64,000 nt of DNA from a virus: IMG/VR virus record IMGVR_UViG_3300049033_000018, positions 19,638-83,637 of that record. One strand, given 5' to 3'. Made by a program: the position numbers and the translations under genes. The notes under the pieces were generated by a model. It was not told the origin of the DNA and made no database searches. It saw nothing but the letters and a program-made list of their open reading frames with translations. Of the stretch, positions 11,590 to 43,730 are shown piece after piece (position 1 is the stretch's first letter; each line of letters starts with the position of its first letter).

Positions 11590-11622
11590 TTTGTAAAATC
11601 AAAATTTTTTCTTATATTTGCA
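11590..11622 (+). promoter_or_regulatory. Bacteroidota-type promoter for the tail operon
   Basis: TTTG (11590-93), 19 nt, TATATTTG (11613-20). Confidence 0.8.
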
Positions 11623-11644
11623 ATTCATAAAAAAATATTTTACT

Positions 11645-12822: not shown

Positions 12823-13682
12823 TGACATTTAACGAGTTTCTATCAGATTTAAAGGTAGAATTTAGACAATATTTTGATGCAAATCTTATAGATGATTTAT
12901 TAGTCTATAAGTGGGTTAACCAGGCTTTAAAGAAGTTTGGAGCTACTGTAATGGTATATCAAGATAAAATGATTTCTGTGGAAAATAATAAGGCTAAATT
13001 ACCTGAAAATTTCTTCCAATTAAAAGCAGCTATTTTGTGTGAGCCAGACTTTATTGAGTGTAGAAAAGAAGATGAAAAAATACTTCTTAATTCTTTCTTT
13101 TGGACTGATGTAACTAGAAAACAAAAATCTTGGGATATTTGTACAGAAGATTGCTGTGAGAATGCAGTAGAAGAATTTACCATAAGAGAAAAGACATATA
13201 TGAACGAGTGTGCTATCACAAAAGTTTATAAAAGTCCAATGGAACTAAAGTTAGGTAAATCATTTAATAAAACATATTGTGCTCCAGATTGCTTAAATAA
13301 GTTTGCATCAGGAGCTAGAAATGAAATTAATATCGTTGGTACCACTTTACATACCAATTTTAAAGAAGGAGAAATTTATCTAAAGTATAAAGGATTTGAG
13401 GTAGATGAAGAAGGGCTTACAATCATTCCTGAAACTCCAAAAGGGGAAGTATCATCTTATGTGATGATATTTGTAAAAAGAAATATTTTAGAATATATTT
13501 TAGCCAATGGAGAAGATACAAACATTATTACTTTATTCCAATATTATAATCAACAAGCACAAACACAATTAGCTTTAGCACTAACAGATGCTAAATTTAG
13601 TAACTTGACTCCTAAGTCACTTTACAAACTAAAATTAAGACCATACTTGGAGAGACAAGTATTTGAAAATAGAATTCACTAA
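12822..13682 (+). CDS. crAss-like tail tubular/ring protein (P22 gp4-like)
   Basis: AKLPENF and LHTNFKEGEIYLKY...DEEGLTIIP blocks; located just before the muzzle gene. Confidence 0.6.
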   Translation: MTFNEFLSDLKVEFRQYFDANLIDDLLVYKWVNQALKKFGATVMVYQDKMISVENNKAKLPENFFQLKAAILCEPDFIECRKEDEKILLNSFFWTDVTRKQKSWDICTEDCCENAVEEFTIREKTYMNECAITKVYKSPMELKLGKSFNKTYCAPDCLNKFASGARNEINIVGTTLHTNFKEGEIYLKYKGFEVDEEGLTIIPETPKGEVSSYVMIFVKRNILEYILANGEDTNIITLFQYYNQQAQTQLALALTDAKFSNLTPKSLYKLKLRPYLERQVFENRIH

Positions 13683-21729: not shown

Positions 21730-21761
21730 GAGTTTTCTTTATACTTTTTATTTTTTGTTAT

Positions 21762-21779
21762 TTTTTTCTTAACTTTGTA
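21762..21779 (+). promoter_or_regulatory. Promoter, -7 box only
   Basis: T-tract plus TAACTTTG (21770-77) 13 nt before the GTG start; no correctly spaced -33 box seen. Confidence 0.55.
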
Positions 21780-21790
21780 AAAAATTTAAT

Positions 21791-25900: not shown

Positions 25901-25917
25901 CAATTTTTTTCATAGAT

Positions 25918-25950
25918 TTTGATTTGTCAAAATTTTTTCTTATATTTGCA
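25918..25950 (+). promoter_or_regulatory. Bacteroidota-type promoter
   Basis: TTTG (25918-21), 19 nt, TATATTTG (25941-48). Confidence 0.8.
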
Positions 25951-25980
25951 GTCTTATTTATACAAGGCTGCATTTTTATT
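25947..25980 (+). terminator. Intrinsic terminator overlapping the promoter -7 box and start site
   Basis: TGCAGTCTT-N8-AAGGCTGCA followed by TTTTTATTTT. Confidence 0.6.
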
Positions 25981-26014
25981 TTGTAGTTAATAATTATTTT
26001 TAGAATATATTTAA

Positions 26015-28573
26015 ATGGCTAATGCATTTTCAGTTTTTAGAGCAAGACAAGGGTGGATAGACCCAACAGACCAGGACTTCACTTTGAAGGCTCTTATGTT
26101 TAAACAACAGAAGTATGATGCTAACCAAGCTAAAGTCCAATCAATTATAGATAAATACCAATCTCTTCAAGTAGCAAGGGGTGTAGATAAAGAGTATTTA
26201 AATTCAAAACTATCTCAATTAGTTGGGTCAGCAAATGCTTTAGGACCTCAGGATTTATCATCAAACGCAGTAACTTCATCCATCACTAACCATTTAGGTC
26301 AAGTTTTGGATGATAATGTTATGACTGCAATTGGAGAAACAGCAAAGATTAGAAATTATCAGAATGAGATGGCTCAAATAAAAGAGAAACATCCTGAATT
26401 ATATAATCCTTTGAATGAAGCTTACGGTTTAGCACCAGCTCAACAATATTTACAAAGCTCAGATTTAGGAGCTAAAATACAAGGTAATTTATCATACACT
26501 CCTTATCAAGATGTTGAAGGGGATGTTAATAAATTCTTAATGGAAATTCAAAAGAATTCCAAAGATGGCGTTACCATGATGCCAAATCCAAATGCTCCAG
26601 GGCAAATGATTGAAGTAACTTTAAATGGTAAAAGTGCTAATGAACTTAGACAAATTGCTATGGGTTATATTGGTAATAGATACGATAATCAGTTGAAAAT
26701 AAATACATGGGGGGGAACAAATGGGTTTAGAGATATTGAATCTAGACTGGAACCCACTCTTACTGGATACACAAATTTGATTAACCAAAAATCTAAAGAA
26801 CTTGCTGATGCAAAATCTAGGTTGACTGGGAATTTAACAGCAGAAGAAAAATCAGCATTACAAGACCAAGTAAAATCATTAGAGAATGAGGTATTATCAG
26901 CTTCTTCTATGAGAGATGGAATTGAAAGAGACCCAGTAAGCTCTTTAGTTTTCTTAGAAAAGGAGAAAATTGCTAATAGGTCAGGGTTGGCTTTAGGTAT
27001 GCTTCAAACTAGGTCTGTAGAATATAAGAAAGATGATTATTATTTTTCAGTATTAGATAATGCTAGAGAGGATAGAAAAGAAGCTTTTGACATTCAAAAG
27101 TATAATAATGATACTGCAATTAAAAGCAGAGAGTTAGAGTTGAGAGAAATGGAGATAGGAATTAAAGCTGCTAAAGGAAGTAAAGATTCGGATTCGGATT
27201 CCACTTCTTCAGGGGGCACAAGTAATCTTACTAATCTTATTCTAGAAGATACTAATCCAGCAGAAGCTTTACCAGAACAATTAGAATCAGCTCACAACTC
27301 TTGGAAACAATCTATTAGTGATAAATATCAAGCTCAAAATAATTTTGCAAGGCAAATTATGAATACAGTTAATGATATTGCTTCTGGTAGAAATAGAGCT
27401 GTCAATGAAGACCAAAGACAGGCTGCTATTGCTGCTGTAAACCAATTCAAACAGAATGGAGGTAAGATGGATACAATGAGTGCTGCTCAGGCTCAAAATT
27501 TCATGAAGTTAATGTCTAGAGCAGATGCATTCAGTGCGCTTGATTTCTTACCTGTAGATAATGGTAGACTTGTACAAGTGAAGCAAACATATACTGATTT
27601 ATTTAATGATTGGAGCCAATCAGCAAATGGATATAGAAATGCTAAAGCTCAAGCTCAAAAAGCTGAGGCTTCAGGAATGAAAAGAGGATTTGCTTCTAAT
27701 GAGATGTTTGTTGAAACAGCTAAAAAACTTGCTCCAGGTATTTATACGGATAGAGTAGCAAATGCAGTTGTAACAAAGAAAAATAAAGGAGAACTCCAAA
27801 CTTTAATCTCTATGTCAGATGAAGCAAAAGGTTCAGCAGAAGTTCCTATTTTAGAAGATGATTCTGCATTTAAAATAAAAGATTTAAAAAATGGTAAATT
27901 TGAAATTACTTATTTTTCCAAATCTAAAGATTCAGATAAAAATAATGTAATTGTTCCTAATACAGTAACAGTTGCTAAAGAAAATGCTTATAGAATTATT
28001 CCTTCTTTAAGCCAAGGTAGAACAGAAGAAGATAGATACAGATTAGCAACTTTAGGTACAAAACCTTTATATTCAACTAATCTAAAATTTTTAGATGCTA
28101 ATTCAACAAATTATGATAATTATGTTGATACTGCTAAAACTTTTGCTACTACTCCTTATGATTTAAATTTTATTGATAGTAATAATGCCAAACAAACTAT
28201 TAAACAACAGCTAGGAATAACAGGACTAAGAAAACCAGAAGAAAGAGAGATGATGAACAGTTTAGTTGATACATTACTTTCAGATGAAGTTATGAGTAAA
28301 TATAAAACTTCTGTATATTTTAATCATTCTGCTATTTCAAGTAATGGAAAAGGTTATATTAGTGTTGTTAATAAAAAAGGAGATAAGATAGCTACTTTAA
28401 ATTTAGGAGAAAAAAGAAGTTTAGATAAAGAGGTAAAGCAAAATGAATGGTTACCTCAAATAAATTATTCTAAAGTAGTTGGAAGTGAATTAAGAAAAGT
28501 ATTGTTAAATTATCAAACAACAGGAAAATTGGAGTTAACTCCAGAAATACAAAAATTATTATCGAATGGCTAG
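26015..28573 (+). CDS. Cargo/ejection protein, 852 aa
   Basis: Helical and Cys-free; N-terminal ...LMFKQQKYDANQ block; located in the cargo cluster. Confidence 0.55.
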   Translation: MANAFSVFRARQGWIDPTDQDFTLKALMFKQQKYDANQAKVQSIIDKYQSLQVARGVDKEYLNSKLSQLVGSANALGPQDLSSNAVTSSITNHLGQVLDDNVMTAIGETAKIRNYQNEMAQIKEKHPELYNPLNEAYGLAPAQQYLQSSDLGAKIQGNLSYTPYQDVEGDVNKFLMEIQKNSKDGVTMMPNPNAPGQMIEVTLNGKSANELRQIAMGYIGNRYDNQLKINTWGGTNGFRDIESRLEPTLTGYTNLINQKSKELADAKSRLTGNLTAEEKSALQDQVKSLENEVLSASSMRDGIERDPVSSLVFLEKEKIANRSGLALGMLQTRSVEYKKDDYYFSVLDNAREDRKEAFDIQKYNNDTAIKSRELELREMEIGIKAAKGSKDSDSDSTSSGGTSNLTNLILEDTNPAEALPEQLESAHNSWKQSISDKYQAQNNFARQIMNTVNDIASGRNRAVNEDQRQAAIAAVNQFKQNGGKMDTMSAAQAQNFMKLMSRADAFSALDFLPVDNGRLVQVKQTYTDLFNDWSQSANGYRNAKAQAQKAEASGMKRGFASNEMFVETAKKLAPGIYTDRVANAVVTKKNKGELQTLISMSDEAKGSAEVPILEDDSAFKIKDLKNGKFEITYFSKSKDSDKNNVIVPNTVTVAKENAYRIIPSLSQGRTEEDRYRLATLGTKPLYSTNLKFLDANSTNYDNYVDTAKTFATTPYDLNFIDSNNAKQTIKQQLGITGLRKPEEREMMNSLVDTLLSDEVMSKYKTSVYFNHSAISSNGKGYISVVNKKGDKIATLNLGEKRSLDKEVKQNEWLPQINYSKVVGSELRKVLLNYQTTGKLELTPEIQKLLSNG

Positions 28574-31500
28574 TACACCACAAGACTTATATAACGCTTC
28601 ACCATCAGGAATTGACCCAGTAATCGCTATGACTTCAAATGGAGTAAGTGAGAATATGGCTTTGACAGAAAATATTTTAAACAACCCGATTTCATATGAT
28701 TTCGGGGAGGAATCTTTATCCCAATCTTTGAAAAGAGTTTCTGAATTAAAAGTTGTTGACTTCAATTCTATCTATAAGCCAACTTTAAATCTTGGTAATA
28801 TTGGTATTGATGGGAGTGGTGCTTCTGGTAGTAGAGGTAAAATTGACCCATTTAGTTCTCCAGACGATAATACTTTCTCTTGGATTGGAGATAGAATTAA
28901 TGTGGATGAATACTATAACCAAATGAGTGAAGATTGGGCTAATCTTGATAAAGATAATGCAGGACTTATTGGTACAGGAGGTGGTATTGTAGCAGGAGCA
29001 GCAACAGGAGCAGCAATAGGTTCACTTGGTGGACCAATAGGTGCAGCTATTGGGGGAGTAGTTGGAGGAATACTTGGGGGAATAGAAGGTAATCAAGTAT
29101 CTAAAAATATTGGTTATGGTTACGTCAGAAACAAGTTCGGATTTGATGAACAAGCTAAGTATAACCAACAGGGATTTTGGGGCAGAGCTGGAGCAGGGTT
29201 AATGAATATGGTTCACTCAGCAGATAGTTTAACTTTAGGAACTCTAGGAACAATAGCTTATCTTCCACAATCTATTTCAGAAAGAAGTTTAAATGTTTTA
29301 TTCAATAATGATTTTACTAAATTATTGGATGATTATGATAAAAGTTCACAAAGTTCTAATAGGATTTACCACTCAACAGATTATGATAACTCTTCATTAA
29401 TTGGAAAGTTAGCTCATAGTGAAATGTGGTTTGAACAAGTAGCTCCAGCCGTGGGATTCATGATTGGAGCTATTGGTGTTGGTAGAGCTACGGGACTTGG
29501 TTTAGGTGCTGTAGGATTAGGAGGAGCTGGAACAGGGGCTGCTGGTAGAGCATTTTTAGCTGAAACCATTGGAGCTGCTGCTAAAGGTGAAACTCAAGCA
29601 TTAGGTAGACAGGCTTTACTTAATGGTTTCAAACAGGCTGCTAGACAAGAACTTAGAAACCAAACATTTAAGTCAATGGCTGGAAATATGGTAACACTTT
29701 TAACAAGTGCATCTCCAGAATCAGGTCTTGAAGCAAGAGGAGCAATGAATGAAGCTCAGGAAAACTATATTAAAGCTTATAACAATGCATATGGTAGACT
29801 TCCTTCTTCAGAGGAAATTGCTAATTTTGATGTAGCTAATAAAGAATCAGGAAATGGTGTTTTTGCAGCTAATTTAGCTGTGGTAGGATTATCTAACTGG
29901 TTACAATTTGGTGATGCTATGGGTCTAAATAAGGTTGTTAAAAAGGGTCTTTTAGATGATTCTATTAACAAAGTATTTGGATTAGGAATTAAGAAAACTG
30001 TTGGCGATGTCTCAGAAAAAGGTATTCAATCTGCTGTATGGGAAGCTGTACAGAGAACTAAACTTCAAAAGTTAGGGTATAGAGCTTTAAAAGCTTTACA
30101 AGCCCCTGCAACGGAAGGTCTTTGGGAAGAAGGTATTCAACATGTTATTTCTGATACACATAAAAATTATCTAGAATCCAGATTTAATCCACAAGCAACA
30201 GAAATTAATAAATCTCTTTTAAATGCTTTTGGAGAATCCTTTGTTAATACATATACCTCAGAAGCAGGGTGGAATGATATTATGATTGGGATGATTGTTG
30301 GTGCTGGAGGAACTGTAAGAGCAAGAGGAGGATTTGATATTTTAAATCAAAGACAGGTAGGAAGAGAAGAAAGAGCCATTGCAGGGAATGTTCAGAACTT
30401 AAATGAAACTCAAAATGAGCTTATTTCTGCTCATGAGGATTATTTAAGTAAACAAGCAATTTATAATAACTTAGCAAATGTTTCAACAGCAAGATTAAGT
30501 GATAAAATTGGTGCTTTAAATCAACAGGTTATAAATTCAGATTTAAGTAAAAAATATATAGCAAGTGGTAATCTTGAACAAGCTCAATTGGCTTATCAAA
30601 ATTCATTATTTGCTAAACTATCAGCAGAAAAAAGAGCAGGGTTATCTGAATCTAATAAATTTGATTTGGATATGATGGTTGAAAATATTCCAGAAGATGC
30701 ATTAACAAATCTGTATAATTTTAGAACTCCTGAACAAATAGCTCAATTTAAACAAGAAACTCAAACTAATTTAAATAATTTAGTTGAATCCTTTGATGCA
30801 GCCTATGAGATGGCAGAATCCCTTAATATTGGAACTAATTCAGGAAATTTCTCACCAGCTCAGGTAACTGAAATGGCAGCATTAAATTTTTTCCATGGAA
30901 TGCATTCTGCTGACAATGCTAATAACATTGCCCAAGCTTTAGAACAAACTACAGGGATAAATGGTATTGCAGATGCTATGAATTATTATTCTAATTTAAC
31001 TGGAGTACAGCAAAGAAGAATGGGGGAACTAGAAGACCTTCAAAAGCAGTTGACTGAATTAGAATCAAAACACAATGATTTATTAAATAGTTTTTCAACT
31101 GAGATTAATAAACCGCAAAGAGAAGGTGAAAATGAAGTTGTAGTAACTCAATTAGATAGAACCAATAATGCTATTGCAGGAGTACAAAGTGAAATAGAAA
31201 GTGTTAATAATAGAATCAATACTTTAACTAACATTTTAAATTCAAAAGAATCTATTCCAGAATTTCCTTTTTCTAATCCTGCAATAAAATACTTTGATGC
31301 TGTTAATTTGACATTAGCAGATAACGAAGCATCTAATGTATTAGGTAATATGCAAAGTTTAGACAGATATGTTGAACATTTGTTAGACACTACTGAAAAA
31401 ACAGAAGATGAAATATCTATTGATAGAAATAAAGCAGATATGCTTCAAAGCTTAGTAGGTGCTTATAAAGCTCAGATGGCTTTGATGAGAAATTTTGCCA

Positions 31501-34500
31501 AAGCAGCTCAGATGATTGCTGACCCTGCGTATGTAAATAATTTATCAAAAGGTATTTTTAACTCTAAAAAATATGATGCAATATTTGACAATACAGATTG
31601 GATTGAAAATAATGAATCAGGGTTTGATGAACTTTCAAAAGAAGAATTCAGACAATTAAAAGAAAAGTTAGACTCAGGAATTATATCTAAATATGATGTT
31701 CATACATTCTTAACTAATGCAGAAATTTTAAGAATGGGTGCTTCAACACAAGAAGGGAATACTATCCAAGAACAAGAGGATGATATTGTATCGAAAGAGG
31801 ATTTACAAGATATTGTGAATCAGGATGATGAAGGAAATATGAATTTAGATACATCTTCAGTAACTTATAAAAATATATCTGAAGCTATTGCTCAAGATTT
31901 AGCTTATGGTAATGAACTTTCATCTAACCAACAATTAGTTTATAATGCTATTCAATCTAATGAGACAGAGTTTGAATCACTAAATGAAAGGATAAATGAG
32001 ATAAAATCAGAAGCAGAAGTCTCTCCTGTTACAATTGGAGAAACTAATAGAAATTCTAGATTAGCTCAGGAACAAAGATTAAATAAAATTGCAGAAGATA
32101 GAAGAAATGAAATTAATGCAAGGTATGATGAGTTAATTGCGAATATACCTGAAGAAAGTCCTATAGAAGAAGTAATTGTTGAAGAAGCAGCTCAAGAATC
32201 TGAATTATCAGAAGCTGAAGCTTCTTTACCTGAATCAAATGCTTTAGCAGGATTTAATGGGCATGACCAAATTAATTTTAGAAATTCTAATTTCCAACAG
32301 GTAGGTTTTGATATTGATGGGAATCATTATAATGTAATTACAGGTTTTGATAGAGCAAAAACTCTTATCAGTATTAATGGTATTACAATTCCGTTTTATC
32401 TAACTTCAGGACATGGAGGTAAAGGGTTGACTCCAGGATGGTATCCATTTTTTGGAATCGGTAAGGATGGTTGGATGAATAAGACTGATAAAGCTGATAT
32501 GGAAACATATTATGAAAGATATTGGGGAACTGAGGTTGCTGATATTATCAGAGAAATTTCTGAAGAGTTAAATCAGTTCTATGGTACAGAACCAAGTTCT
32601 TTTAGTAATGATGCAGACCCAACTACAACTGTTAGACCTATTACTACATTAGCTGATAAAGTAGAAGATTATATTAATGATGCTATTAGTATTACTCCTA
32701 CAGCTAATAATACAGATGCAAGAAAATCATTAAGAAGTAATGTAGAACAGTTAGGAAATGATATTCTTGATAATTATGATGAAAATGCTCCAGTAAATGA
32801 AGTAGAGGAATCAACAAATAGAGGACCTCAGCCGTTTTCATCTCCAGAGCTAGAAGTTACTACACCTACTGACCCTGTTTCAGCAATTGACCCTATTGGA
32901 CAACTAGAAGCAGAAAGACAAAATGAGCTCGATGAAGTTGAAAGAATACTTGAAGAAGCTTTAAATCCAGTAGAACAAAGAACTATTCAGATAAATACTG
33001 AGCTTGATAGGTTAAATGCATTTATTGAGAATGTAATTGATGAATTAAAATCAGCTTCTAAAGAGTTAAATGTTGAAACAGTAGATAATTTTGATTTAAA
33101 CCCTCAGAAAGTTTCTAAAATCTTTGATGAATATGAGACATTATTTAATAAAGAAGAAAAAACTAATGATGATGAAGCAAGACTAACTGAGTTAAAAAGT
33201 TTAATTAACAAATATGGACTTGTTGAAGGTAGAGTTATTGATTATCAGGGAGCACCTATTAGGTTATCTGACGTATTAGAGCAAAGAGTTTTCTTAGAAA
33301 ATGAACACTTTAATACTGAAAGTGAATTAATGCCCCTATCAGATGTTGAAACTACTCTAGTAACAACAGAAGCACCTACTGATGAGTTTACAGCTAAAAC
33401 AAGAGGAGGAGACCCTACAGTACTTAATAACTATGACTTTGCTACTTTTACAGGTAGTAATTCTAGTAATGAGGTTTCTGTAGCAAATATTACTCCAGAA
33501 TTGTTAATGACTCAATTATTAAATGGTAAACAAGATTGGAGTATTGAAGTTGATAATAATGAGATTAGCTTAGACCAAGCAAATGATTTCATTGCTGAGG
33601 GACAAGTTGTGAGAATAACTTTCCCAGATGTAAATAATGAAATGAACAGAGTTTCATTCCAGTTAGATAAATCAAGAAGAATTATTCTTCCGAGTGGAGA
33701 TATTCAAACTTTAGAAGAAAATTCACCATTTAGATTTAATTCAGATAACATTATTGGTAGTTCAGGATATTATACTTTAACTATGGATGTTAATGGGGTT
33801 CAAGTTCCAGTTAAGTCAGATTTTAATTTAGCTCAGCTAATTGACAGTCAGGCAGCTCAAAGACTTAATCCAGGTGATAACATTTTTTTTGAAGTTGAAT
33901 TGGATTCTACTTTTAATCAAGGTTTATTAAATAGGATGTCCCCGTTCTTATCTTCAGTTTCTGAAGAGGATAGAGCTAAATTTGAACCTTTATTAAATCT
34001 GGCTACTGAGGCTGTAGATAATACTACAAGACTGAATGTTTTAAAAGCAAATATTGCTTCTTCACAAAAGTTCTTAGATGAGTTAAATGAACAAATTGAT
34101 GCTGCTAATGATGCAACTGTAACTGACAGAGCAACTTATAACAAAGAAGTTGTTTTTCCTTTAGTTGATAGAGCAACATCTGAAGACAAAAAAATTCAAG
34201 CTTTAGAAAATGAGGTAAGCTCATTACAGGCTAGAAATAAAGAAATCAGAGTACAACTTAATGTTGATTTCAATAAGATTCCTTATGATAGAATTCTAAG
34301 AAATCTTGAAAAGAAACTAGGTAAGTCTAAATTAAGTGACTCTCAACAAAAAGAGTTTGATGCTTTAAGAAAAGAGTTTAAGGATAGTATGGTAATAGTT
34401 TCTAAAGATAAATCTGGAAATACTGTAGGAATTGTAAAAGCATTCAATAACTCAAATGGTCAGAATGCTTTATATATGGATTACCTAAGAAACAGTTTAT

Positions 34501-35294
34501 TCAGCAAGTTTGAGAGCAGTGGGTATAAAAATGCAAAAAGTTCATTTACAGTTCCAGTTCAGATTGTTTACATGGGGATTCCAAATATTTCATCTACTGA
34601 AGCAGGAAAGGTACTATATGAATTTTCTAGAGATACTGGAGATAATATGATAAATCCTAATAAAGTGATGGATATTGGTTATGTTGGATTCAATGAGTTG
34701 AGGTTTAACTCTGGGGCAAAATATAGTACTCCTTATAATTATGCTCAAAGTATAATGAGAGATAAGGCTTATACAGGAAGACAAATCCCTGTAATTATGT
34801 TTAGGTATAATGGAAAAGAAGTTATTTACCCTGTATCATTAAAAGAAGCATTGAGTAGTGATGTTGTAGTCTCTCAATATGATTCTCTAGTAAGTAATAA
34901 GAGTAAAGATTTTAGTGCTTATATTAATGACATTAATGAGTTCTTATCTTCAAATAAAATATCTCCTAAATACAGACTTACATCTTTGAACTATACGGAT
35001 GAGTATGTAGGTCAGATAAGAGATGTAATTGAAAATTCTGAGTTTTATCCTTCTGTAGAAGAGTTTTTAAATACAAGGAATATCGCACAGACTCTTATAG
35101 ATAATGCTCTTATAGATATTGACTTAAATAATAGTCCATTTATTGGACCAAAAATAAAGCTTGCACTTAATCAAGTTCCTGAATTTAACTCTGAATTGAG
35201 CAATACTGATAAAGTAATTAATGATAATTCTCCTATACAAAATCAAGCTGAGGAGAATAAAGATGAAAATGAATGTAATTTTGAATTAGACTAA
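28566..35294 (+). CDS. Giant cargo/ejection protein, 2242 aa, probable membrane-channel former
   Basis: Gly/Ala-rich hydrophobic segments (GGGIVAGAATGAAIGSLGGPIGAAIGGVVGG; GFMIGAIGVG; IMIGMIVGAGG), an EGLWEEGIQ motif and long acidic coiled coils. Confidence 0.65.
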   Translation: MASTPQDLYNASPSGIDPVIAMTSNGVSENMALTENILNNPISYDFGEESLSQSLKRVSELKVVDFNSIYKPTLNLGNIGIDGSGASGSRGKIDPFSSPDDNTFSWIGDRINVDEYYNQMSEDWANLDKDNAGLIGTGGGIVAGAATGAAIGSLGGPIGAAIGGVVGGILGGIEGNQVSKNIGYGYVRNKFGFDEQAKYNQQGFWGRAGAGLMNMVHSADSLTLGTLGTIAYLPQSISERSLNVLFNNDFTKLLDDYDKSSQSSNRIYHSTDYDNSSLIGKLAHSEMWFEQVAPAVGFMIGAIGVGRATGLGLGAVGLGGAGTGAAGRAFLAETIGAAAKGETQALGRQALLNGFKQAARQELRNQTFKSMAGNMVTLLTSASPESGLEARGAMNEAQENYIKAYNNAYGRLPSSEEIANFDVANKESGNGVFAANLAVVGLSNWLQFGDAMGLNKVVKKGLLDDSINKVFGLGIKKTVGDVSEKGIQSAVWEAVQRTKLQKLGYRALKALQAPATEGLWEEGIQHVISDTHKNYLESRFNPQATEINKSLLNAFGESFVNTYTSEAGWNDIMIGMIVGAGGTVRARGGFDILNQRQVGREERAIAGNVQNLNETQNELISAHEDYLSKQAIYNNLANVSTARLSDKIGALNQQVINSDLSKKYIASGNLEQAQLAYQNSLFAKLSAEKRAGLSESNKFDLDMMVENIPEDALTNLYNFRTPEQIAQFKQETQTNLNNLVESFDAAYEMAESLNIGTNSGNFSPAQVTEMAALNFFHGMHSADNANNIAQALEQTTGINGIADAMNYYSNLTGVQQRRMGELEDLQKQLTELESKHNDLLNSFSTEINKPQREGENEVVVTQLDRTNNAIAGVQSEIESVNNRINTLTNILNSKESIPEFPFSNPAIKYFDAVNLTLADNEASNVLGNMQSLDRYVEHLLDTTEKTEDEISIDRNKADMLQSLVGAYKAQMALMRNFAKAAQMIADPAYVNNLSKGIFNSKKYDAIFDNTDWIENNESGFDELSKEEFRQLKEKLDSGIISKYDVHTFLTNAEILRMGASTQEGNTIQEQEDDIVSKEDLQDIVNQDDEGNMNLDTSSVTYKNISEAIAQDLAYGNELSSNQQLVYNAIQSNETEFESLNERINEIKSEAEVSPVTIGETNRNSRLAQEQRLNKIAEDRRNEINARYDELIANIPEESPIEEVIVEEAAQESELSEAEASLPESNALAGFNGHDQINFRNSNFQQVGFDIDGNHYNVITGFDRAKTLISINGITIPFYLTSGHGGKGLTPGWYPFFGIGKDGWMNKTDKADMETYYERYWGTEVADIIREISEELNQFYGTEPSSFSNDADPTTTVRPITTLADKVEDYINDAISITPTANNTDARKSLRSNVEQLGNDILDNYDENAPVNEVEESTNRGPQPFSSPELEVTTPTDPVSAIDPIGQLEAERQNELDEVERILEEALNPVEQRTIQINTELDRLNAFIENVIDELKSASKELNVETVDNFDLNPQKVSKIFDEYETLFNKEEKTNDDEARLTELKSLINKYGLVEGRVIDYQGAPIRLSDVLEQRVFLENEHFNTESELMPLSDVETTLVTTEAPTDEFTAKTRGGDPTVLNNYDFATFTGSNSSNEVSVANITPELLMTQLLNGKQDWSIEVDNNEISLDQANDFIAEGQVVRITFPDVNNEMNRVSFQLDKSRRIILPSGDIQTLEENSPFRFNSDNIIGSSGYYTLTMDVNGVQVPVKSDFNLAQLIDSQAAQRLNPGDNIFFEVELDSTFNQGLLNRMSPFLSSVSEEDRAKFEPLLNLATEAVDNTTRLNVLKANIASSQKFLDELNEQIDAANDATVTDRATYNKEVVFPLVDRATSEDKKIQALENEVSSLQARNKEIRVQLNVDFNKIPYDRILRNLEKKLGKSKLSDSQQKEFDALRKEFKDSMVIVSKDKSGNTVGIVKAFNNSNGQNALYMDYLRNSLFSKFESSGYKNAKSSFTVPVQIVYMGIPNISSTEAGKVLYEFSRDTGDNMINPNKVMDIGYVGFNELRFNSGAKYSTPYNYAQSIMRDKAYTGRQIPVIMFRYNGKEVIYPVSLKEALSSDVVVSQYDSLVSNKSKDFSAYINDINEFLSSNKISPKYRLTSLNYTDEYVGQIRDVIENSEFYPSVEEFLNTRNIAQTLIDNALIDIDLNNSPFIGPKIKLALNQVPEFNSELSNTDKVINDNSPIQNQAEENKDENECNFELD

Positions 35295-35295
35295 T

Positions 35296-37596
35296 ATGAA
35301 TAAATGTAAAATTTTCAGAGACTTTGATACTGATAGAGTAACTAGAGTATTGAATAACCAAGGGGAGGAGTCAGCTTTGTATAAAGCTGCTCTAGCCCAA
35401 ACTAAAGACCAAGAGCAAGCTCTTGATATTTGGTCAGTTACTTCATTGCCAAGGTTTGAAGAATATGCAAAAGATTTAAATTTAAATGGAAAAGAAGCTA
35501 AATTATCAGATGTTTTAAAATTCATCAATAATTTAAACACAACAGAAACTCTTTCAAATCAGGATTTAGTCGAACTGTCTAATAATTTACAAACTTTAAA
35601 TGTTGAAAATGGGGATAATTTTTTATCCCTACTTCAACAGACTTTTTATAATGCAACAGGATTATTTGAAGTTAATAGACAAAAGTTAAGAAATTCAGGA
35701 TTATATACTGAGGCAGAAATAAATAATATTATGACTTTTCCTTCATTAAGAGCAAATATAAAGGAATTTATTAACAAAATTAGAAATACTTTAAAAGGAG
35801 ATAACCAATTACCAAATTTATTTACAGATAATACATCTTATAATGACTTTGTGATTCAGGACTCTTCCACTTATGTAGGGATAGGAAAGTTTAAAAACTA
35901 TTTACCAGAAGAAGTTAGAGATTATCTTTTAAAGAATATCAGAAGTTTTACAACTGATGTTGAGTTTAAGGCTAAACTTCAGGCATTAGATAATATTGAC
36001 ATAAGAGACTATGTTTTAGATAATTCAGATGTTTACAACTATGTAAAGGATTTAGTTAATAATTCTAAGGTAGTTCCTGTATTTACAGAGACGGATGGAA
36101 TGGTTGTTCCAAAGTTAGATAATGATTTGGTACCTGCTATTTTAAACACTATCAGAATAGGAGAGCCAAAAGACATCTTCACTATGTCTGTAGATAATGT
36201 AAGAGTTATTCCTGTGGACAATTGGTATCAAAATGAAGCTGTTCCAACTTTATTAAAAGATTTAGAGCTACAGGCTGCCATAAATCACATTGATTTATAT
36301 GGGTTAGCACAATCATACACTAGTAAGAGTAGAGAGGAAATTTTGGGTATCTTAGACGTTGTGGATGACTTTTTATACAAGGCTGAATTAGCAGAAATAT
36401 CCAATACTGATATTTATGATTTAGGAAACGATATTTCAGAGTTCTTTGGACAAGAGGTTACACAAGCAGAAATAACAATACCTATCTCTGAAACAGACAA
36501 GGGTAGAAACCTTTCTATTATTGATACTAGTCTTTCAGAAATTGATTTATATCAATCAGACGGATTTATCAAATTTAGAGATAACCTATATCAGAAAGCA
36601 ACAGTATATGATTCATTTAATACAATGGCTGAAGATACATACAATGCTCTTTTAGATGATATTACTATTTTACCTGATTCAGTTTTAGAATCCTTACAAC
36701 TTAAAACTAATGGAAATTATAATTTTGCTTATTTACTAAATCCTGCAAATCAGACAAATATTTTAAGTAAAATAAATGAATTAGTAGCTAGAGAAATGGA
36801 TTCTAGTTTTACTATTAATAGTAATGAAGAATTTGATGCAGCTAAACAAATAACCTTATATAAAAGCTTATTAAAAGTTCCAACAATTCAAGTTAGAAAA
36901 TTAGATATTTCTGATTTCATGACTAGAAAAGCAGTGGTGGACATTGATAATGACACTTTGGATTATTTGACTTCAGATTTTATATCAGATTTTTATGCAA
37001 AATATTTACAGGAAAAAGTTTTAGAGTCTCCATTGTTTGATGCTGCTTATAAATACTTTGAAGTAACAAATAGGGGAATTGTATTTAATAACACGAATCC
37101 ACTTATCAAAAATCAAGTTTTAACATTAATGGCAGAAGATGAGATGTTTCCTGTATTACAAGCTTATAGTGCCATAAGTAAAGAAGATTCTTTGGAATTT
37201 TTAATGCCTGAACAAATTGATGAAACTTTAATCGATATTCAGGATAGAAGAGACTTTGTAGTTAATCATCCAGAATATGTACAAAAGTTTGTTAAACCTT
37301 TCACACAGGTAGACCCAACAACTTTAGTTGTTAAAAATAGTCTAGATGAATTTTTAAAGCTTAATAATGGATTATATGAACTTACAGATTTTAGAAATGG
37401 GGTTTCTATTTATTCTTTACTTAATAATGTAGCTGACCCAAATTTTTATGTCTTTAACTCAGCTAAACCAGTTGTAAATATTGATGTAAATATAGAGACT
37501 TATGAGTCCTCAAATACAGATTTAAACCTTACAAATAAATCTAAAGTAAGCCAGTCTGTGACTGATAAACTACTTGAAACGCTTATTTGTTCTTAG
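35296..37596 (+). CDS. Cargo/ejection protein, 766 aa
   Basis: Acidic and helical; the N-terminal C...V...GEESALY block resembles the start of the next gene. Confidence 0.55.
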   Translation: MNKCKIFRDFDTDRVTRVLNNQGEESALYKAALAQTKDQEQALDIWSVTSLPRFEEYAKDLNLNGKEAKLSDVLKFINNLNTTETLSNQDLVELSNNLQTLNVENGDNFLSLLQQTFYNATGLFEVNRQKLRNSGLYTEAEINNIMTFPSLRANIKEFINKIRNTLKGDNQLPNLFTDNTSYNDFVIQDSSTYVGIGKFKNYLPEEVRDYLLKNIRSFTTDVEFKAKLQALDNIDIRDYVLDNSDVYNYVKDLVNNSKVVPVFTETDGMVVPKLDNDLVPAILNTIRIGEPKDIFTMSVDNVRVIPVDNWYQNEAVPTLLKDLELQAAINHIDLYGLAQSYTSKSREEILGILDVVDDFLYKAELAEISNTDIYDLGNDISEFFGQEVTQAEITIPISETDKGRNLSIIDTSLSEIDLYQSDGFIKFRDNLYQKATVYDSFNTMAEDTYNALLDDITILPDSVLESLQLKTNGNYNFAYLLNPANQTNILSKINELVAREMDSSFTINSNEEFDAAKQITLYKSLLKVPTIQVRKLDISDFMTRKAVVDIDNDTLDYLTSDFISDFYAKYLQEKVLESPLFDAAYKYFEVTNRGIVFNNTNPLIKNQVLTLMAEDEMFPVLQAYSAISKEDSLEFLMPEQIDETLIDIQDRRDFVVNHPEYVQKFVKPFTQVDPTTLVVKNSLDEFLKLNNGLYELTDFRNGVSIYSLLNNVADPNFYVFNSAKPVVNIDVNIETYESSNTDLNLTNKSKVSQSVTDKLLETLICS

Positions 37597-37616
37597 TAAT
37601 ATTTTTTATCATATGT

Positions 37617-37649
37617 TTTGATATTTGAAAATTTTTTCTTATCTTTGCA
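37617..37649 (+). promoter_or_regulatory. Bacteroidota-type promoter
   Basis: TTTG (37617-20), 19 nt, TATCTTTG (37640-47). Confidence 0.8.
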
Positions 37650-37664
37650 TAAAATTAATTTTTA

Positions 37665-40600
37665 ATGAATTGTACAATAACTATAACTCCATCTGGAATC
37701 TTACAAAAAGTTTCAGACTTTAATGGAGTTGAGTCAGAACTATTTAAACAAATTGCCTCTCTTCCATATGTAAATAATGTAGGGGAGGCTTTAGATATTT
37801 ATTTAAAGACACAAACAGAAGATTATCAAAATTCAATAGCCAATGCTGCTGAGAAGTATTCTATTACAGAACCAGTACTTAAATTTCAATTAGGTAATGG
37901 TCAAATTGTAGATACCTATTTTGAAGCATTAGCTCAAGGAGCTGGAGATATTATCACAACAGGATTTGATGTGGAAGGAGATTTAGTACCTTTACATTCA
38001 TTTAGCTCAGATATTTCTCCAAATACACTTCTTGGAAAAATCAATAACCTAATTCTGAATAATGTACTTTCTCCATCTAAAGCAAAAGTTTCAAATGAAT
38101 ACAGATTGCAAGGAAGTGGTGATAATATTACTACAATTAGTTTCAATAATGTTGAGGCATTACAAGAATTAAATCAAGTTGAAGATAGATTTTCTATTGA
38201 AAGAAATACATTAAGAGATAAATTAACCGATAATGTATTAACAGATTATATACAGGAAGATTTTATAACTATAGAATCAAATGAATACCCTGTTTATAAT
38301 GTACAGTATGAAACTGTAGTTTTAGATAATAACAATCAGTTCAAAGTTATTAATAACGTTGAGCTGGATAGTCATGTTAATACTCAAACAGGAGCCAATC
38401 TTTTACTTGATAGAGAGCTTAATAATTTAATTGATTCAGAATTTGATTCTGTTTCCACAGTTGATGTGGATAAAATTTTGAGCACTAAAGACAAAAGTGA
38501 AATACAAAAGAAATTACTTAAAATATTAGAAAACTTAGGAGTTAAAGTAACTTCTCTTTCTAACTATTTAAAGACTTATGAACAAAAAAATGGTGTAGAC
38601 CCCTCTATTGAAGCATTAGCTGACATTACTCAAAGAGTTGTTGCTTTAGCTGAAGGTGGAGGAACTATTGAAAATCTATCTGAAGAGGTATCTCATTTCC
38701 TTGTGGAAGCCTATAACAATCAAGATGAGATTAATTCTATTCTTCCAACAGTAGAAAATTCTCCTGAGTGGGCAGATGAATCTAATTTCTATTTCACATT
38801 ATATGAAAACCAAGGTTTAACAGGTGAAAATTTAAGAGATAAGGTAAGAAGAGAGATTTTAGGTAAAATTGTAGCTAACTCTATTTTAAATAGAGCTGAG
38901 TCTACCCTGTATTCTAGAGCTTTAGGATTGATTAATAATTTTGTGAATACTATTAGAGGATATTTCTCTCCAAATATGAGAACTAATCTTAACTCCCTGG
39001 TGAATACTATTACTGAAAGTGCTTTAGAGGAAGACAAATTCAATAATAATTTTTCTACAGGTACTTTATCTGATAGTAATTTTGAAATATTCTATAGTGC
39101 AAAACCTTCAACTTTAACAAATAATTTGAATGCTGCTGTAACATTAATGCAAAAACAATTAGGAGTTTTACAAAGAGAAGGAACAGGTAGAGGATTACAG
39201 ATGAGAATGGATACATTAAGAAGTAATATTGAGGCTTCAGATGTATTAAAATCTGTATCTACATATTTGGATATGGTTGATACTATTTATTCAGATGTAA
39301 ACAGAAAAGTTAAAAAAGCTATTGAACTTGAAAGAAATGGTCAGAAAGTAAGTCCTATATTAATGGGACCTCAGGCTGTATCTGCTGATATTCTAACAAC
39401 AGAGAATCTGGCTCATCTTTCAACATTAAGAGATAACTTATTAAATTATAATTTCACTGACCCTGCTGATAAGAAAAGAGCAACTAGTCTTATAGATAAA
39501 ATAACATCATATTCTTCTGATATTCAAACACTTAGTGGGGAGTTAAAAAATTTAACTACTCAAAGAGGTGAAGAAATGGTTGAAACTTTAATGCAGGATT
39601 TTAGATTACCTGATGATGTTAGAGAAGCTTTTCAGGTTCAATTGAATTCTAAATTACACGATGTTAACATGCTTATGGCTAATTTTGGTAACATGCAAAA
39701 TGCGAGTAACCCAATTTTAGCATTGTTAAGCAAAATGGTTAACAGAATGTATACAACAGTTAGGAACAAAGATTTAAAAGTTTATAATGCTCTAGCTCAA
39801 AGACTAAAAGATTTAGGAATGATTGATAAATTGGATTCTTTAATTCAAAGAAGTCCTGAAGGAAAATTAACTAATTATTTTGCTTCAGTTGTTAATTATG
39901 CTAAATTTGATTCTGCTTTTGAAGCAGAGAAAGTGAGACTTTATAATGAAGCTTTACAAAAAGACCCTGTTACATCAGGGTTAGCTCCTATTGAAAATAC
40001 AATACAAATTGGAACTAAGGATTACCCAGGAGAATTAGATTTAACTGATGATGTAAGAAGAAGTTACAATGAACAAATGACTCAATGGTTGGAAGACAAT
40101 ACTGAAACTCCATATAATGGTTCATTCAAGAAATTGAGAGAAGATATGTTCAAGGCTATTGAAGATGGTGTAACTTTACCTGATGGAACTAAAATAGCTA
40201 TGGTGATTCCAGATGTTGTGAAACAGCAAATGGCAGAGTGGGCTAGGAGAAGAAGAGAAATTAAAGAACCTTATTCAGTTAATGGGATTGTAGATTATTC
40301 TCAAATGACAGAGACTGAAAGACAGCAGTTAAGTACAATTAAAAAAGAAAGAAAAGAAGCTTCTTCTTTAATTGACCCTTTAACTCTCGAAGAAAAAACA
40401 GGTACAGAGCTTGAAATTGCCAGAGCTTATCAGGCAATGAATGCTTATTATATGGAACAAAATAAAGGTCAGAATAAAAGAACTATTTCAGGTAGTTTAT
40501 TTGAAGCTTTGGATAATTTTACTAAAGGGAAGTCAGGAGCTCAATTAGCTGAAGGAAATAGAGGTTCATTTGATTTCTTTAATAAAAATTCAGGGATTGC

Positions 40601-43600
40601 TTTTAATGAAAAATTTTGGGATAGAGTTAAAACAAACAATTTAAAAGCTTCTCAAAAAGTTGAGAATTTTATAAGTTCAAATAATATAGTAGGTGACGAG
40701 GCTGACATTATGTTATCTCAGGCTATAAGATTAGAAAAACTATTATCAAATAGGTCTTCTTTTTTAAAACAGTTCAGTAATCCAGCTAATCCATCTGAAA
40801 TTGATGTTGAGTCTATGTCTTCGGCTATGCTTACATCATTTAAAGATTTAGAACAAGATATTGAATCTTTGTATTCAGAACTTAATTCTAAGATGGAGTC
40901 TGAAGGAGGACTTACTCCAGCAATAGAAACTGAATCTACTTCTAACGAAGCTTATTTAAAAGCATTATCTGAGGCTATCAAACTTCAACCTTCTTTAACA
41001 GAAATGGAATTTATGATGGGTCATATGACAGCTCTAAATAAAAATAAAGTAACATTGTTCAATTCTCAATATAGAGATTTTAAAAGAACAGGGATTATTC
41101 CGATTACTGGAAACTTCAAGTATGTTACTACAAAATTATTAGGATTAGACCCTAAGTCTACTAACTCAGAAATTCAGAGAGCTATCACTGAATATGATGC
41201 AAGAGGTGGGGAGGCTTTAGATGCAAGATTTGCTAAGTCTAAATTATTAGGATATTTCAAGAGATTCGCACCAAAAGGATTTGCTGAATTCTATGATATG
41301 TTAAAATCTGGAGATATTGTTAATAGTCAAGGTCAGAATGTTTCTTTCTCTGATGTTATTGAAGATATTGAAAAAGGAAGAAATGGGGGAGAAAGTACTT
41401 TTGAATTTACTACAAAAGATGGGCAAAATGTTAACATTAGTCAGTATCTAAGCATCAATGCAGAAGTTGAATGGATGGAAGACCAAAATCCATTTACAAA
41501 CAATCCAAATTATGTGAAGAATGCTCCAGGTAGTCAACACATGGGAGGAGCGAGACAGCCAAGAATAGATATTTATAAAAATGATGATTTCATTAGAAAG
41601 TACAACATAGATATGAATGCTTATACTTCAACTGGAAAGTTATCTTCTAATGGAACTACAAGAGAGAATGAGAATGAACTTCAAGCTTTAAATTTGGTCA
41701 TTGAAAATAGGTTTGAAGCTCTTAAAAATCAAGGTCTCCAAAATTCTGAAAACTCATTTAAGAGACCTCAAGTAAGAAAAACTACTTTAGAACATGCTGC
41801 TGCTGCAACTAAAGGTAATGTAATTGTTACAGCTAAAAATGCTTTAAGAGATGGATGGAGTAATACAGTAGATAAGATGCTTTATGGAGAAACAGTTGAT
41901 GGAGATATAAATTCAGATGGTAGAGAACTTTCTAATTTAACTGTCCCAGTTTTAAATGTGAGAAATCTTGAAAACCTAGAAGATGTAACTGAAGATGTTC
42001 TTTATGGGTTGATGACCCATACACATAATGCTCATTTATATACAGAAAGACAAAAAGTATTAGCTAAATCTAACCAACTAGAACAGTTAATGTTAAATAA
42101 ACAAAAGTTCATTGGGAAAGAAGCTAAAAATACAAGAGCTTATAAATGGTTTCAGGATTATAGAAAAGTAAATTTATTAGGAGTATCCGAATTAAATAAG
42201 GTAGAAATTCCACTAGCTGGAAAATCTATTAATTTGACTAATTTCCTAAGGTCATTTGATGCTTATCAAGGGTTGGTGAATGTTGGTTTAAACCCAGCCG
42301 TATCTATCACTTCAGGAACGTCAGCCTTTACTTTTAGTTTAACAGAATCTATTTTAGGAGATTATATTCCTACAGACTCCTATAAATGGGGAGCAAAGAG
42401 ATATATGGCAAATCAGCCAGCATTTATGACTGAGACTGGTAAAGTTGAAAAAACTAGTGAAATATATCTACTTGGTGAGAAATTCGGTTTGTTCAATCTG
42501 ACAGAAAGATTAAATGGCTCAAAATATAACCAAGCTTTAAGAACATTATTTAAAGATGGTATTCATGGGGCAGCCCACACCTTAACTGAAATGATGACTC
42601 ACCCTTATGCACCAACTTCAATGTATGGGGTACTACATGATTTTAGGTATGTTGCTAAACCAGATGGGTCTTACCAGTTAATGAGTTTTAATGATTTCAA
42701 GAGAATTAGTACAAATGAATTCTCAACTCAGAAGGAATTAATGGAAGCTTGGAAATTGCATGAGGATAACTCTATTGCTAAAAATTTAGATACAAATGGA
42801 GGGACTGTCAATTATTCTGACAAGTTAAAAGGAATCTGGCAAACAATGTATGGGGATAATCAAGAGGCTATTGATAATGAGCTAGAATATATGGAGAATG
42901 AGATTACCTCAGGAACTGAGAATTTAGTTTCTAAGATTGATGCTAAAATGCCAATGTATGATAAGTCTACAGCTTCAAGAAATGCTTTACTTAGATTTGC
43001 CTTGAGACACAGAGAATGGTTCTCAATTAATATGCAAAATAGATGGAAAGGACAGCATTATAACTTAAACACTCACAAGTATGAAGAAGGGTCTTATATT
43101 TCTGCTTCAACTTATTTAAGAGACGTTTACAAAGCTTTTGAATTTAAATCAGGTGTAAGTAATTATAAGAAGTTTAGAGAGATTTACGATGAATTGGATT
43201 CTCATCAGCAAAAGAATATTCAGAGAGTATTAATAGATTTAGCTTTATCAGCTCTTTTAATTACTGTAGGAGCTTTTGCAGTGGCTCCAATTGTGGATGA
43301 TGAGGAAAATAAAGATAACTGGGCAATTCAATATGCTGGGTATATGTATTTCAGATTAGCTTCTGAACAAATGTCAGTAGGTATTGCAGGTCTTCCACAG
43401 TCAAAAGATGTTATTGAAGCACCATTTGTAGCTGTAAACTCTATGAAGGAGTTAATGAAGCCTTCTAACTACTCTAGTGACCTTGTTGAAAGAGGGGCTT
43501 ATGAAGGACATAGTAAGTTATACAAGTTAATTGCTAAACAGACTTTTGCAAGACACTATTATGATACAGCTTATGGAGTAACTCAGAAGTCAGATTTCTT

Positions 43601-43730
43601 CAGATTGAATAACGAATGGACACTTATGGGAATGAGCAAACAATCCAAGAAAGAAAAGGATGAGCAAGCCAAGTATGAAGAAGAATTAGCCAACACGTTT
43701 GGAGGTCCTGATAGAGCAGGAATGAGATAA
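37665..43730 (+). CDS. Giant cargo/ejection protein, 2021 aa, with a degenerate zincin-like motif and C-terminal TM
   Basis: EEVSHFLVE (HExxH-like, degenerate); C-terminal hydrophobic helix LALSALLITVGAFAV; last + strand gene of the cargo cluster. Confidence 0.6.
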   Translation: MNCTITITPSGILQKVSDFNGVESELFKQIASLPYVNNVGEALDIYLKTQTEDYQNSIANAAEKYSITEPVLKFQLGNGQIVDTYFEALAQGAGDIITTGFDVEGDLVPLHSFSSDISPNTLLGKINNLILNNVLSPSKAKVSNEYRLQGSGDNITTISFNNVEALQELNQVEDRFSIERNTLRDKLTDNVLTDYIQEDFITIESNEYPVYNVQYETVVLDNNNQFKVINNVELDSHVNTQTGANLLLDRELNNLIDSEFDSVSTVDVDKILSTKDKSEIQKKLLKILENLGVKVTSLSNYLKTYEQKNGVDPSIEALADITQRVVALAEGGGTIENLSEEVSHFLVEAYNNQDEINSILPTVENSPEWADESNFYFTLYENQGLTGENLRDKVRREILGKIVANSILNRAESTLYSRALGLINNFVNTIRGYFSPNMRTNLNSLVNTITESALEEDKFNNNFSTGTLSDSNFEIFYSAKPSTLTNNLNAAVTLMQKQLGVLQREGTGRGLQMRMDTLRSNIEASDVLKSVSTYLDMVDTIYSDVNRKVKKAIELERNGQKVSPILMGPQAVSADILTTENLAHLSTLRDNLLNYNFTDPADKKRATSLIDKITSYSSDIQTLSGELKNLTTQRGEEMVETLMQDFRLPDDVREAFQVQLNSKLHDVNMLMANFGNMQNASNPILALLSKMVNRMYTTVRNKDLKVYNALAQRLKDLGMIDKLDSLIQRSPEGKLTNYFASVVNYAKFDSAFEAEKVRLYNEALQKDPVTSGLAPIENTIQIGTKDYPGELDLTDDVRRSYNEQMTQWLEDNTETPYNGSFKKLREDMFKAIEDGVTLPDGTKIAMVIPDVVKQQMAEWARRRREIKEPYSVNGIVDYSQMTETERQQLSTIKKERKEASSLIDPLTLEEKTGTELEIARAYQAMNAYYMEQNKGQNKRTISGSLFEALDNFTKGKSGAQLAEGNRGSFDFFNKNSGIAFNEKFWDRVKTNNLKASQKVENFISSNNIVGDEADIMLSQAIRLEKLLSNRSSFLKQFSNPANPSEIDVESMSSAMLTSFKDLEQDIESLYSELNSKMESEGGLTPAIETESTSNEAYLKALSEAIKLQPSLTEMEFMMGHMTALNKNKVTLFNSQYRDFKRTGIIPITGNFKYVTTKLLGLDPKSTNSEIQRAITEYDARGGEALDARFAKSKLLGYFKRFAPKGFAEFYDMLKSGDIVNSQGQNVSFSDVIEDIEKGRNGGESTFEFTTKDGQNVNISQYLSINAEVEWMEDQNPFTNNPNYVKNAPGSQHMGGARQPRIDIYKNDDFIRKYNIDMNAYTSTGKLSSNGTTRENENELQALNLVIENRFEALKNQGLQNSENSFKRPQVRKTTLEHAAAATKGNVIVTAKNALRDGWSNTVDKMLYGETVDGDINSDGRELSNLTVPVLNVRNLENLEDVTEDVLYGLMTHTHNAHLYTERQKVLAKSNQLEQLMLNKQKFIGKEAKNTRAYKWFQDYRKVNLLGVSELNKVEIPLAGKSINLTNFLRSFDAYQGLVNVGLNPAVSITSGTSAFTFSLTESILGDYIPTDSYKWGAKRYMANQPAFMTETGKVEKTSEIYLLGEKFGLFNLTERLNGSKYNQALRTLFKDGIHGAAHTLTEMMTHPYAPTSMYGVLHDFRYVAKPDGSYQLMSFNDFKRISTNEFSTQKELMEAWKLHEDNSIAKNLDTNGGTVNYSDKLKGIWQTMYGDNQEAIDNELEYMENEITSGTENLVSKIDAKMPMYDKSTASRNALLRFALRHREWFSINMQNRWKGQHYNLNTHKYEEGSYISASTYLRDVYKAFEFKSGVSNYKKFREIYDELDSHQQKNIQRVLIDLALSALLITVGAFAVAPIVDDEENKDNWAIQYAGYMYFRLASEQMSVGIAGLPQSKDVIEAPFVAVNSMKELMKPSNYSSDLVERGAYEGHSKLYKLIAKQTFARHYYDTAYGVTQKSDFFRLNNEWTLMGMSKQSKKEKDEQAKYEEELANTFGGPDRAGMR

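Follow-up and report, generated by a model that had tools for sequence, protein, structure and literature searches.

We analysed a window of 64,000 nucleotides (nt) from a 157,140-base viral genome (IMG/VR record IMGVR_UViG_3300049033_000018, positions 19,638 to 83,637), in which three consecutive genes encode the proteins A, B and C, the first, middle and last links of the arrangement described below (Table 1). They are separate reading frames divided by stop codons, not one fused open reading frame (ORF): the start codon of B lies 1 nt past the stop of A, and a gap of 68 nt precedes C. ORFs were listed and their cysteines (Cys) counted, with positions from the C-end given as negative numbers. 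The interiors of A, B and C are purged of Cys, and each end that faces the next protein keeps one within six residues.

Table 1. Genes and terminal features of the cargo block, by position in the window; lengths in amino acids (aa). gp66 is the virion RNA polymerase of phage phi14:2.
Feature	Position	Strand	Remarks
Muzzle-like virion protein	13685..20329	+	2214 aa; 25 Cys; Cys-rich contrast and synteny anchor
Three upstream cargo-type virion proteins	20329..28573	+	466, 1369 and 852 aa; 0 Cys each
Protein A, first link	28566..35294	+	2242 aa; sole Cys is residue 2237 (-6)
Glycine-zipper, membrane-active-like segment of A	28968..29090	+	residues 135-175, near the N-terminus
Cys codon of A	35274..35276	+	residue 2237, inside the acidic C-terminal tail
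Protein B, middle link	35296..37596	+	766 aa; Cys only at 4 (codon 35305) and 765 (codon 37588; -2)
N-terminal Cys module of B	35296..35475	+	~60 aa; Cys4, beta-hairpin, helices; homologous to the C N-terminus and to gp66 residues 1-69
C-terminal helix of B	37552..37590	+	residues 753-765, ending in Cys765; preceded by a disordered tether, residues 739-750
Protein C, last link	37665..43730	+	2021 aa; sole Cys is residue 3 (codon 37671-37673)
N-terminal Cys module of C	37665..37844	+	starts around Cys3
Hydrophobic, transmembrane-like helix of C	43218..43304	+	residues 1852-1880, near the C-end

An initial annotation, made by reading the sequence, had noted four terminal Cys in A, B and C, and every position and codon that it gave was exact. 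It had also described the other cargo proteins as Cys-free and the ring and muzzle proteins as Cys-rich. Both statements agree with the counts: no Cys in the proteins of 466, 1369 and 852 aa, 25 in the muzzle-like protein, and 5 and 8 in the putative ring proteins (11618-12343 and 12822-13682). A, B, C and the three upstream cargo-type proteins together hold 4 Cys in 7716 residues (0.05%), compared to 0.99% in the other ORFs of the window and 0.82% genome-wide. At the window rate ~76 would be expected (Poisson P < 1e-25). The terminal layout in the window is far beyond chance. With random placement, the probability that every one of the four facing end zones of 6 residues receives a Cys is ~5e-11, and among the 102 ORFs of at least 150 aa in the genome, A, B and C are the only ones whose Cys are confined to the termini.

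Homology and gene order mark the window as the structural module of a crAss-like phage that belongs to the phi4:1 / csAssE-Sib lineage. PHROG matches assign its proteins to virion structural proteins, and the order of genes (muzzle-like, then 466, 1369 and 852 aa, then A, B and C) equals that of Cellulophaga phage phi4:1 from gp042 to gp035. The closest relatives of A, B and C are phi4:1 gp038, gp037 and gp035 (~23-27% identity), and the counterpart genes of the gut phage csAssE-Sib are likewise among the best relatives (~23-27% identity). The phi4:1 record marks gp035, gp037, gp038 and gp039-041 as found by particle proteomics. From these relationships, we identify A, B and C as the three giant particle-carried (ejected) proteins of the crAss-like cargo block. 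The phi4:1 homologues of the upstream Cys-free trio, gp041, gp040 and gp039, are Cys-free too.

Pairwise hidden Markov model (HMM) searches connected C to more distant phages. C matched phi4:1 gp035 (E 6e-35 and 2e-43), which in turn matched crAss001 gp49 (E 1.8e-8), and gp49 matched phi14:2 gp65 (~3e-28). Because of this link through gp035, C is a homologue of both gp49 and gp65. The same kind of search linked phi14:2 gp66 to crAss001 gp50, and tblastn also matched crass 'RNA-polymerase subunit' genes. Pfam gave no match for B or C, and a sequence search of the PDB gave none either. Scans of viral contigs with B- or C-type queries returned near-identical relatives only, so neighbourhoods were taken from the encoding contigs.

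The AlphaFold model of B was confident, with a predicted local distance difference test score (pLDDT) of 87. A fold search with it yielded one noteworthy match, a weak one to gp66 (PDB 6VR4; Foldseek E 0.016), with VIA Z 6.4 and a root-mean-square deviation of 13 Å over both ends of gp66. The resemblance is weak and confined to the two terminal parts of gp66, so that a relation of B to the polymerase scaffold is tentative. The DFDxD motif of two-barrel RNA polymerases occurs in none of A, B and C, and its two matches in the 157-kilobase (kb) genome were judged to be chance; gp66 as a query found no match anywhere in that genome. B is assigned to the cargo block and, as it lacks the motif, is not counted as a polymerase. 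This lineage, to which phi4:1 and csAssE-Sib also belong, has the three-link block but no DFDxD motif in it.

The terminal Cys pattern is deeply conserved. A profile of B run against 1.84 billion representatives found 535 relatives at E<=1e-3, of which the best 150 were counted (327-2807 aa, mutual identity at most 50%). Within these 150, a Cys lies at residues 3-6 in 140 and within the last four residues in 148, and 133 have just these two and no other. Internal Cys, which the initial annotation had named as grounds for rejecting its proposal, were looked for in the same set: they number 15 in 162,949 residues (0.009%), and ten of them come from one protein, so that the proposal strongly withstood this search. 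The C family has a Cys at residue 3-4 and a C-end without Cys in 37/37 sequences, and in the A family the sole or last Cys lies at -2 to -6 and the N-end has none (22/22). Conservation in homologues, which the initial annotation had also put forward, was thus found in all three families, as it was in every genome described below. In an alignment of 62 B sequences with a mean identity of 22%, the two Cys are the only invariant columns; this alignment was pre-filtered for terminal Cys, and the unbiased counts from the best 150 are therefore those to cite. Among close relatives of B, the residues of the tail vary freely and the Cys is unchanged.

Ten of the 150 lack the N-end Cys. Four of these are truncated, to judge by their profile coordinates, and three were cut at contig edges. 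The remaining three comprise a sequence whose start was called wrongly (an internal Met-Ser-Leu-Lys precedes its Cys at 13), a fusion of A and B, and P0050, which is unexplained. Over-long starts occur in crAss002 gp33 (L014 11088-23825) and in P0154, annotated 32 and 8 codons too far upstream of true starts that read Met-Ser-Cys or Met-Ser-Leu-Lys-Cys, as conserved in these proteins. In genomes of this kind, gene starts can be corrected with the help of the terminal-Cys rule.

We read the cargo blocks of phi4:1, csAssE-Sib, crAss001, phi14:2, IAS virus, p-crAssphage, crAss002, Fpv1, cr1_1 and six metagenomic contigs. The order of a protein with a C-end Cys only, one with Cys at both ends and one with an N-end Cys only was found in all of them, and the numbers of C-end and N-end Cys match wherever all links were read. 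In phi4:1, gp038 (1957 aa) has one Cys as its last residue, gp037 has Cys at 4 and -2, and gp035 (1914 aa) has one at 3. The first link of csAssE-Sib (2208 aa) likewise has one Cys, the last residue, followed by a middle link with Cys at 5 and -2 plus two internal ones and a last link with Cys at 5. The crAss001 proteins are gp47 (2341 aa, one Cys at -3), gp50 (Cys at 5, 1334 and -9) and gp49 (1349 aa, one Cys at 5), and those of phi14:2 are gp67 (1797 aa, one Cys, the last residue), gp66 (2180 aa, Cys at 3 and -2 only) and gp65 (1421 aa, one Cys at 3). The three links of IAS virus show the same terminal pattern, with more internal Cys in the middle one, and so do all three links at the metagenomic loci L008, L009 and L011. 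In crAss001 the first link is encoded on the opposite strand to the other two and the end logic is still kept, so that the rule tracks chain logic more strictly than the order of the genes. The claim of the initial annotation that the chain follows gene order is thus not universal.

The phi14:2 gp67-gp66-gp65 and crAss001 gp47-gp50-gp49 blocks resemble the window in placing three giant proteins after the muzzle and small cargo genes, and they follow an identical terminal Cys rule. They differ in the middle link, which in the window has only 766 aa and no DFDxD motif, whereas gp66 of phi14:2 is a polymerase (PDB 6VR4).

Several of these loci carry additional features. In csAssE-Sib (L001 7720-25178), ~8 kb of unrelated small genes lie between the middle link and the C homologue, and the latter is annotated as two coding sequences that overlap (281 and 1885 aa), pointing to a frameshift or sequencing error. 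A small gene of 119-136 aa lies between the middle and last links at four loci (L002 19652-20011, L007 17451-17843, L009 16797-17177 and L011 16408-16818); in the window, the interval between B and C is just the AT-rich gap (37597-37664) and holds no such gene. Last-link proteins of some lineages (L007 17833-27102; P0171, P0176, P0192) carry extra enzyme domains C-terminally, namely Kinase-PolyVal, DUF3293, methyltransferase and PF18760, which resemble polyvalent injected proteins, and the internal Cys of last-link proteins lie mainly in such added parts. In Intestiviridae, the small cargo proteins that precede the block have a basic motif at their end around the sole or last Cys (Cys-Gly-Gly, then Lys/Arg/His), as seen in p-crAssphage (L013 673-4161) and crAss002 (L014 393-2066), with Ser-Cys-Arg in gp47. 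This motif may be a further terminal-Cys link, without a counterpart in the phage of the window.

If the facing Cys form a link, then a peptide bond between the same proteins should make them dispensable, and the fusions behave in this way. Fusions of the A+B type (P0118, P0218, P0217, Fpv1 gp33 and cr1_1 gp076) have a junction without Cys and keep the Cys at the C-end. P0118 (2482 aa) shows homology to A up to ~1710 and to B from ~1725, with a linker where the C tail of A and B's first hairpin would be; its one Cys is the last residue, and the next giant protein starts Met-Ala-Cys. P0218 (2383 aa), with one Cys at -2, is a second, independent fusion of the phi4:1 type. Flavobacterium phage Fpv1 gp33 reaches 4401 aa with a single Cys at -2, and the protein after it has Cys at 3. 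Two fusions have one further Cys distant from the junction: cr1_1 gp076 (4551 aa; Cys at -4, next protein with Cys at 5) and P0217 (3793 aa; Cys at -2), which was read at its own ends.

Fusions of the B+C type show the reverse, in that p-crAssphage gp44 and crAss002 gp33 retain Cys at the N-end and lack it at the C-end. In p-crAssphage, gp44 (4070 aa) has Cys at 3 and one relic Cys at the junction, in a motif resembling the C-end motif of B, and the preceding gp45 has Cys at -2. The crAss002 pair of gp32 and gp33 is the same after correction of the gp33 start. These fused forms contain the same modules in the same order as the window; a peptide bond joins them and the junction Cys are gone, while the window has unfused genes whose products retain the facing Cys. 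A bond between the N-end Cys of B and its own C-end Cys was ruled out, since the A+B fusions drop only the former: the C-end Cys of B stays, as does that at the N-end of the protein that follows, which argues against an intramolecular bond. The fusion pattern also argues against dimers of like with like.

Profile alignments place the N-end Cys at the opening of a conserved module of ~60 residues, a hairpin followed by helices, that is common to B, C and the gp66 RNA polymerase. The initial annotation had noticed a similar N-terminal block in B and C, and this is true homology (hhalign E 1.2e-10, 97%, over 58 columns from the Cys); the first 60-70 residues of B also align to the N-terminus of gp66 (hhalign E 4.9e-5). 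Against a background of -0.4 to -0.6, the flanks of the N-end Cys are basic, with a mean charge of +1.1, and those of the C-end Cys are acidic (-2.0 in B and -3.4 in A). Such opposite charges fit a tail-to-head meeting of the proteins and disfavour contacts of like with like. The distance from a Cys to its chain end is at most about six residues, with nine in one case. With Cys this near the ends, a joined thread has tiny stubs and stays effectively linear, and we take the need for a linear thread to be the probable explanation of their extreme position. A complex prediction with alignments for C residues 1-120 and B residues 680-766 scored 0.01, which bears neither way.

Of the six cargo proteins, membrane-like segments occur solely at the far ends of the proposed thread, near the N-end of A and the C-end of C. 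The glycine zipper of A and the transmembrane-like helix of C may play a part in the start and end of the thread.

Considering these results together, we propose that head-to-tail disulfides make A, B and C a linear, reducible pseudo-polyprotein for ordered ejection, and we put the probability of this explanation at about 60%. The initial annotation had paired the C-end of A with the N-end of B and the C-end of B with the N-end of C. Its pairing gains support from the fusions that lose the junction Cys and from the complementary charge of the ends, and as a topology the chain A-B-C is well supported by the comparative evidence. The chemistry (disulfide or metal) and function of the link, which the initial annotation had also suggested, are plausible: the covalent bond, the time of its formation and its role in ejection are what we infer.

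In the proposed mechanism, the acidic C-terminal tail of each protein would dock on the following protein's basic N-terminal Cys module, and after the particle's release from the reducing cytoplasm the two thiols would oxidise to a disulfide. The product would be a linear A-B-C thread of ~5000 residues, and no stub at a joint would exceed six residues. Unfolded and in one piece, it would leave N-end first through the ejection channel, with the order and the 1:1:1 ratio fixed, and the host cytoplasm of the new cell would reduce it into separate proteins. The disulfide would then be a reducible stand-in for the peptide bond of phages with fused genes. The cargo proteins of crAss001 are thought to exit partly unfolded, and N-end first, as was proposed for gp45 (PMC10172136). 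The fuller picture is one of a disulfide thread of >5000 residues that travels N-end first, in which each protein pulls the next and host thiol reductases cut the joints, so that release is gated by arrival in the cytoplasm. We hold it tentatively, at somewhat less than an even chance. In most lineages, the activation of the injected RNA polymerase would likewise be gated by arrival in the cytoplasm.

Two observations concern redox proteins. An ORF with a thioredoxin domain (Pfam PF00085, E 4.8e-13) lies on the minus strand of the same genome, outside the window (G000:C1:94235-94507, L017), and the p-crAssphage thioredoxin genes gp39 and gp37 lie within a few kb of its cargo block. A connection between such genes and the terminal Cys is possible.

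Several points weigh against a disulfide-linked chain. The particles assemble in reducing cytoplasm and many of the hosts are gut anaerobes, so that oxidation is perhaps slow or partial, and the disulfides of the crAss001 particle were observed after aerobic purification (PMC10172136). Two thiols could equally well hold a metal or carry a modification. Equal copy numbers of A, B and C are not established. Internal Cys are tolerated in some proteins, with 7 in p-crAssphage gp44 and ~10 in the IAS virus polymerase, which means that the purge is not absolute. Finally, the ejection proteins of N4-like phages are poor in Cys without having terminal Cys, and a purge can therefore be explained without a chain.

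The nearest rival explanation keeps the head-to-tail pairing and lets a metal ion such as zinc bridge the two thiols in place of the disulfide. It fits the pairing, the fusions and the charge data alike, and a metal clasp could form in reducing cytoplasm at assembly, which removes the problem of oxidation in anaerobic hosts. In its favour, too, acidic residues often adjoin the C-end Cys (D-x-C and D-E-C motifs). However, each joint has one Cys per side and the flanks contain no conserved His or second Cys. Known metal clasps such as the Rad50 zinc hook take two Cys from each partner. A hook of the Rad50 type needs this pair, and the ligands of a zinc hook or clasp (CxxC, or Cys plus His, per partner, for four in all) were not found at these termini, each of which has one Cys. 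We therefore regard a metal bridge as unlikely. The terminal Cys might instead bond elsewhere, either like with like (A-A, C-C or polymers of B) or as an anchor to the portal, the capsid interior or a tail protein. Partners cannot be assigned from sequence alone, and crAss001 particles have many inter-subunit disulfides (PMC10172136), but neither dimers nor anchors predict that fusing neighbours removes exactly the two facing Cys and keeps the rest. Nor do other partners sit well with the equal counts of C-end and N-end Cys in the genomes whose links were all read, and like ends bear like charge. This makes bonding elsewhere improbable.

It is comparably improbable that the terminal Cys link nothing and act as a packaging or recognition signal, a redox sensor, a modification site or a nucleophile in processing. 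That idea draws on the place of the N-end Cys within a conserved 60-aa module of unknown function and on shifts of its position by a few residues, like a flexible tag, yet it leaves unexplained the matched numbers of C-end and N-end Cys, their joint loss on fusion and the purge of all other Cys. Chance, or a functionless relic of an ancestral polyprotein, has next to no likelihood. Fused forms do exist, and one Cys is left at the p-crAssphage gp44 junction in its motif like the C-end of B, but the two Cys are the only invariant columns at ~22% identity and are kept while their neighbours in the tail change. Chance, already at P ~5e-11 in the window alone, is effectively refuted by this conservation.

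Suppression of Cys in ejection proteins has been described for N4-like phages (N4 gp50-52 and DEV gp71-73; Lokareddy et al. 2024, PMC11445570), where the stated rationale is passage through the oxidising periplasm (PMC11445570). We counted 0 Cys in N4 gp50 (the virion RNA polymerase, 3500 aa), gp51 and gp52 (L020 10523-21025 and L021 126-2523). Both groups are therefore Cys-suppressed, and the N4-like proteins differ from A, B and C in lacking terminal Cys; no sequence relation between the two was found. The Cys-free interior is thus an already known kind of feature, and the paired terminal Cys is the new element. Structural disulfides have been reported in the crAss001 tail and in its gp57 dimer (Bayfield et al. 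2023, PMC10172136). They show that such bonds occur in particles of this phage group, although they stabilise fixed parts of the tail and capsid and none is reported for cargo proteins (PMC10172136). We found no description of the paired terminal Cys rule in the papers searched, including the crAss001 atlas (PMC10172136), the phi14:2 preprint and the DEV paper (PMC11445570). The phi14:2 polymerase preprint makes no mention of cysteine or disulfide.

Two-chain protein toxins offer a parallel outside phages, as their chains are joined by one interchain disulfide that is reduced in the cytosol of the target cell. Like the proposed thread, they bring unfolded cargo through a narrow channel on one disulfide, and cytosolic reduction frees it. 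The toxins are unrelated proteins, however, whose disulfide neither joins ends nor strings several proteins together.

Among the viruses of the human gut, crAss-like phages are the most abundant. How megadaltons of giant proteins are packed and ejected in order through a narrow tail is an open question (PMC10172136), and the terminal-Cys rule makes it experimentally approachable in the cultivable phages phi14:2 and crAss001. Cys found only at residues 3-6 and/or in the last few residues are a cheap marker by which annotators can recognise true starts, ends and fusions among the giant, very divergent cargo genes. If the proposed chain is true, this would be a phage that concatenates its ejected proteins by reducible end-to-end bonds, the first case known to us. 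It would also explain why evolution freely tolerates fusions and fissions in the block, as the joined thread would be much alike either way.

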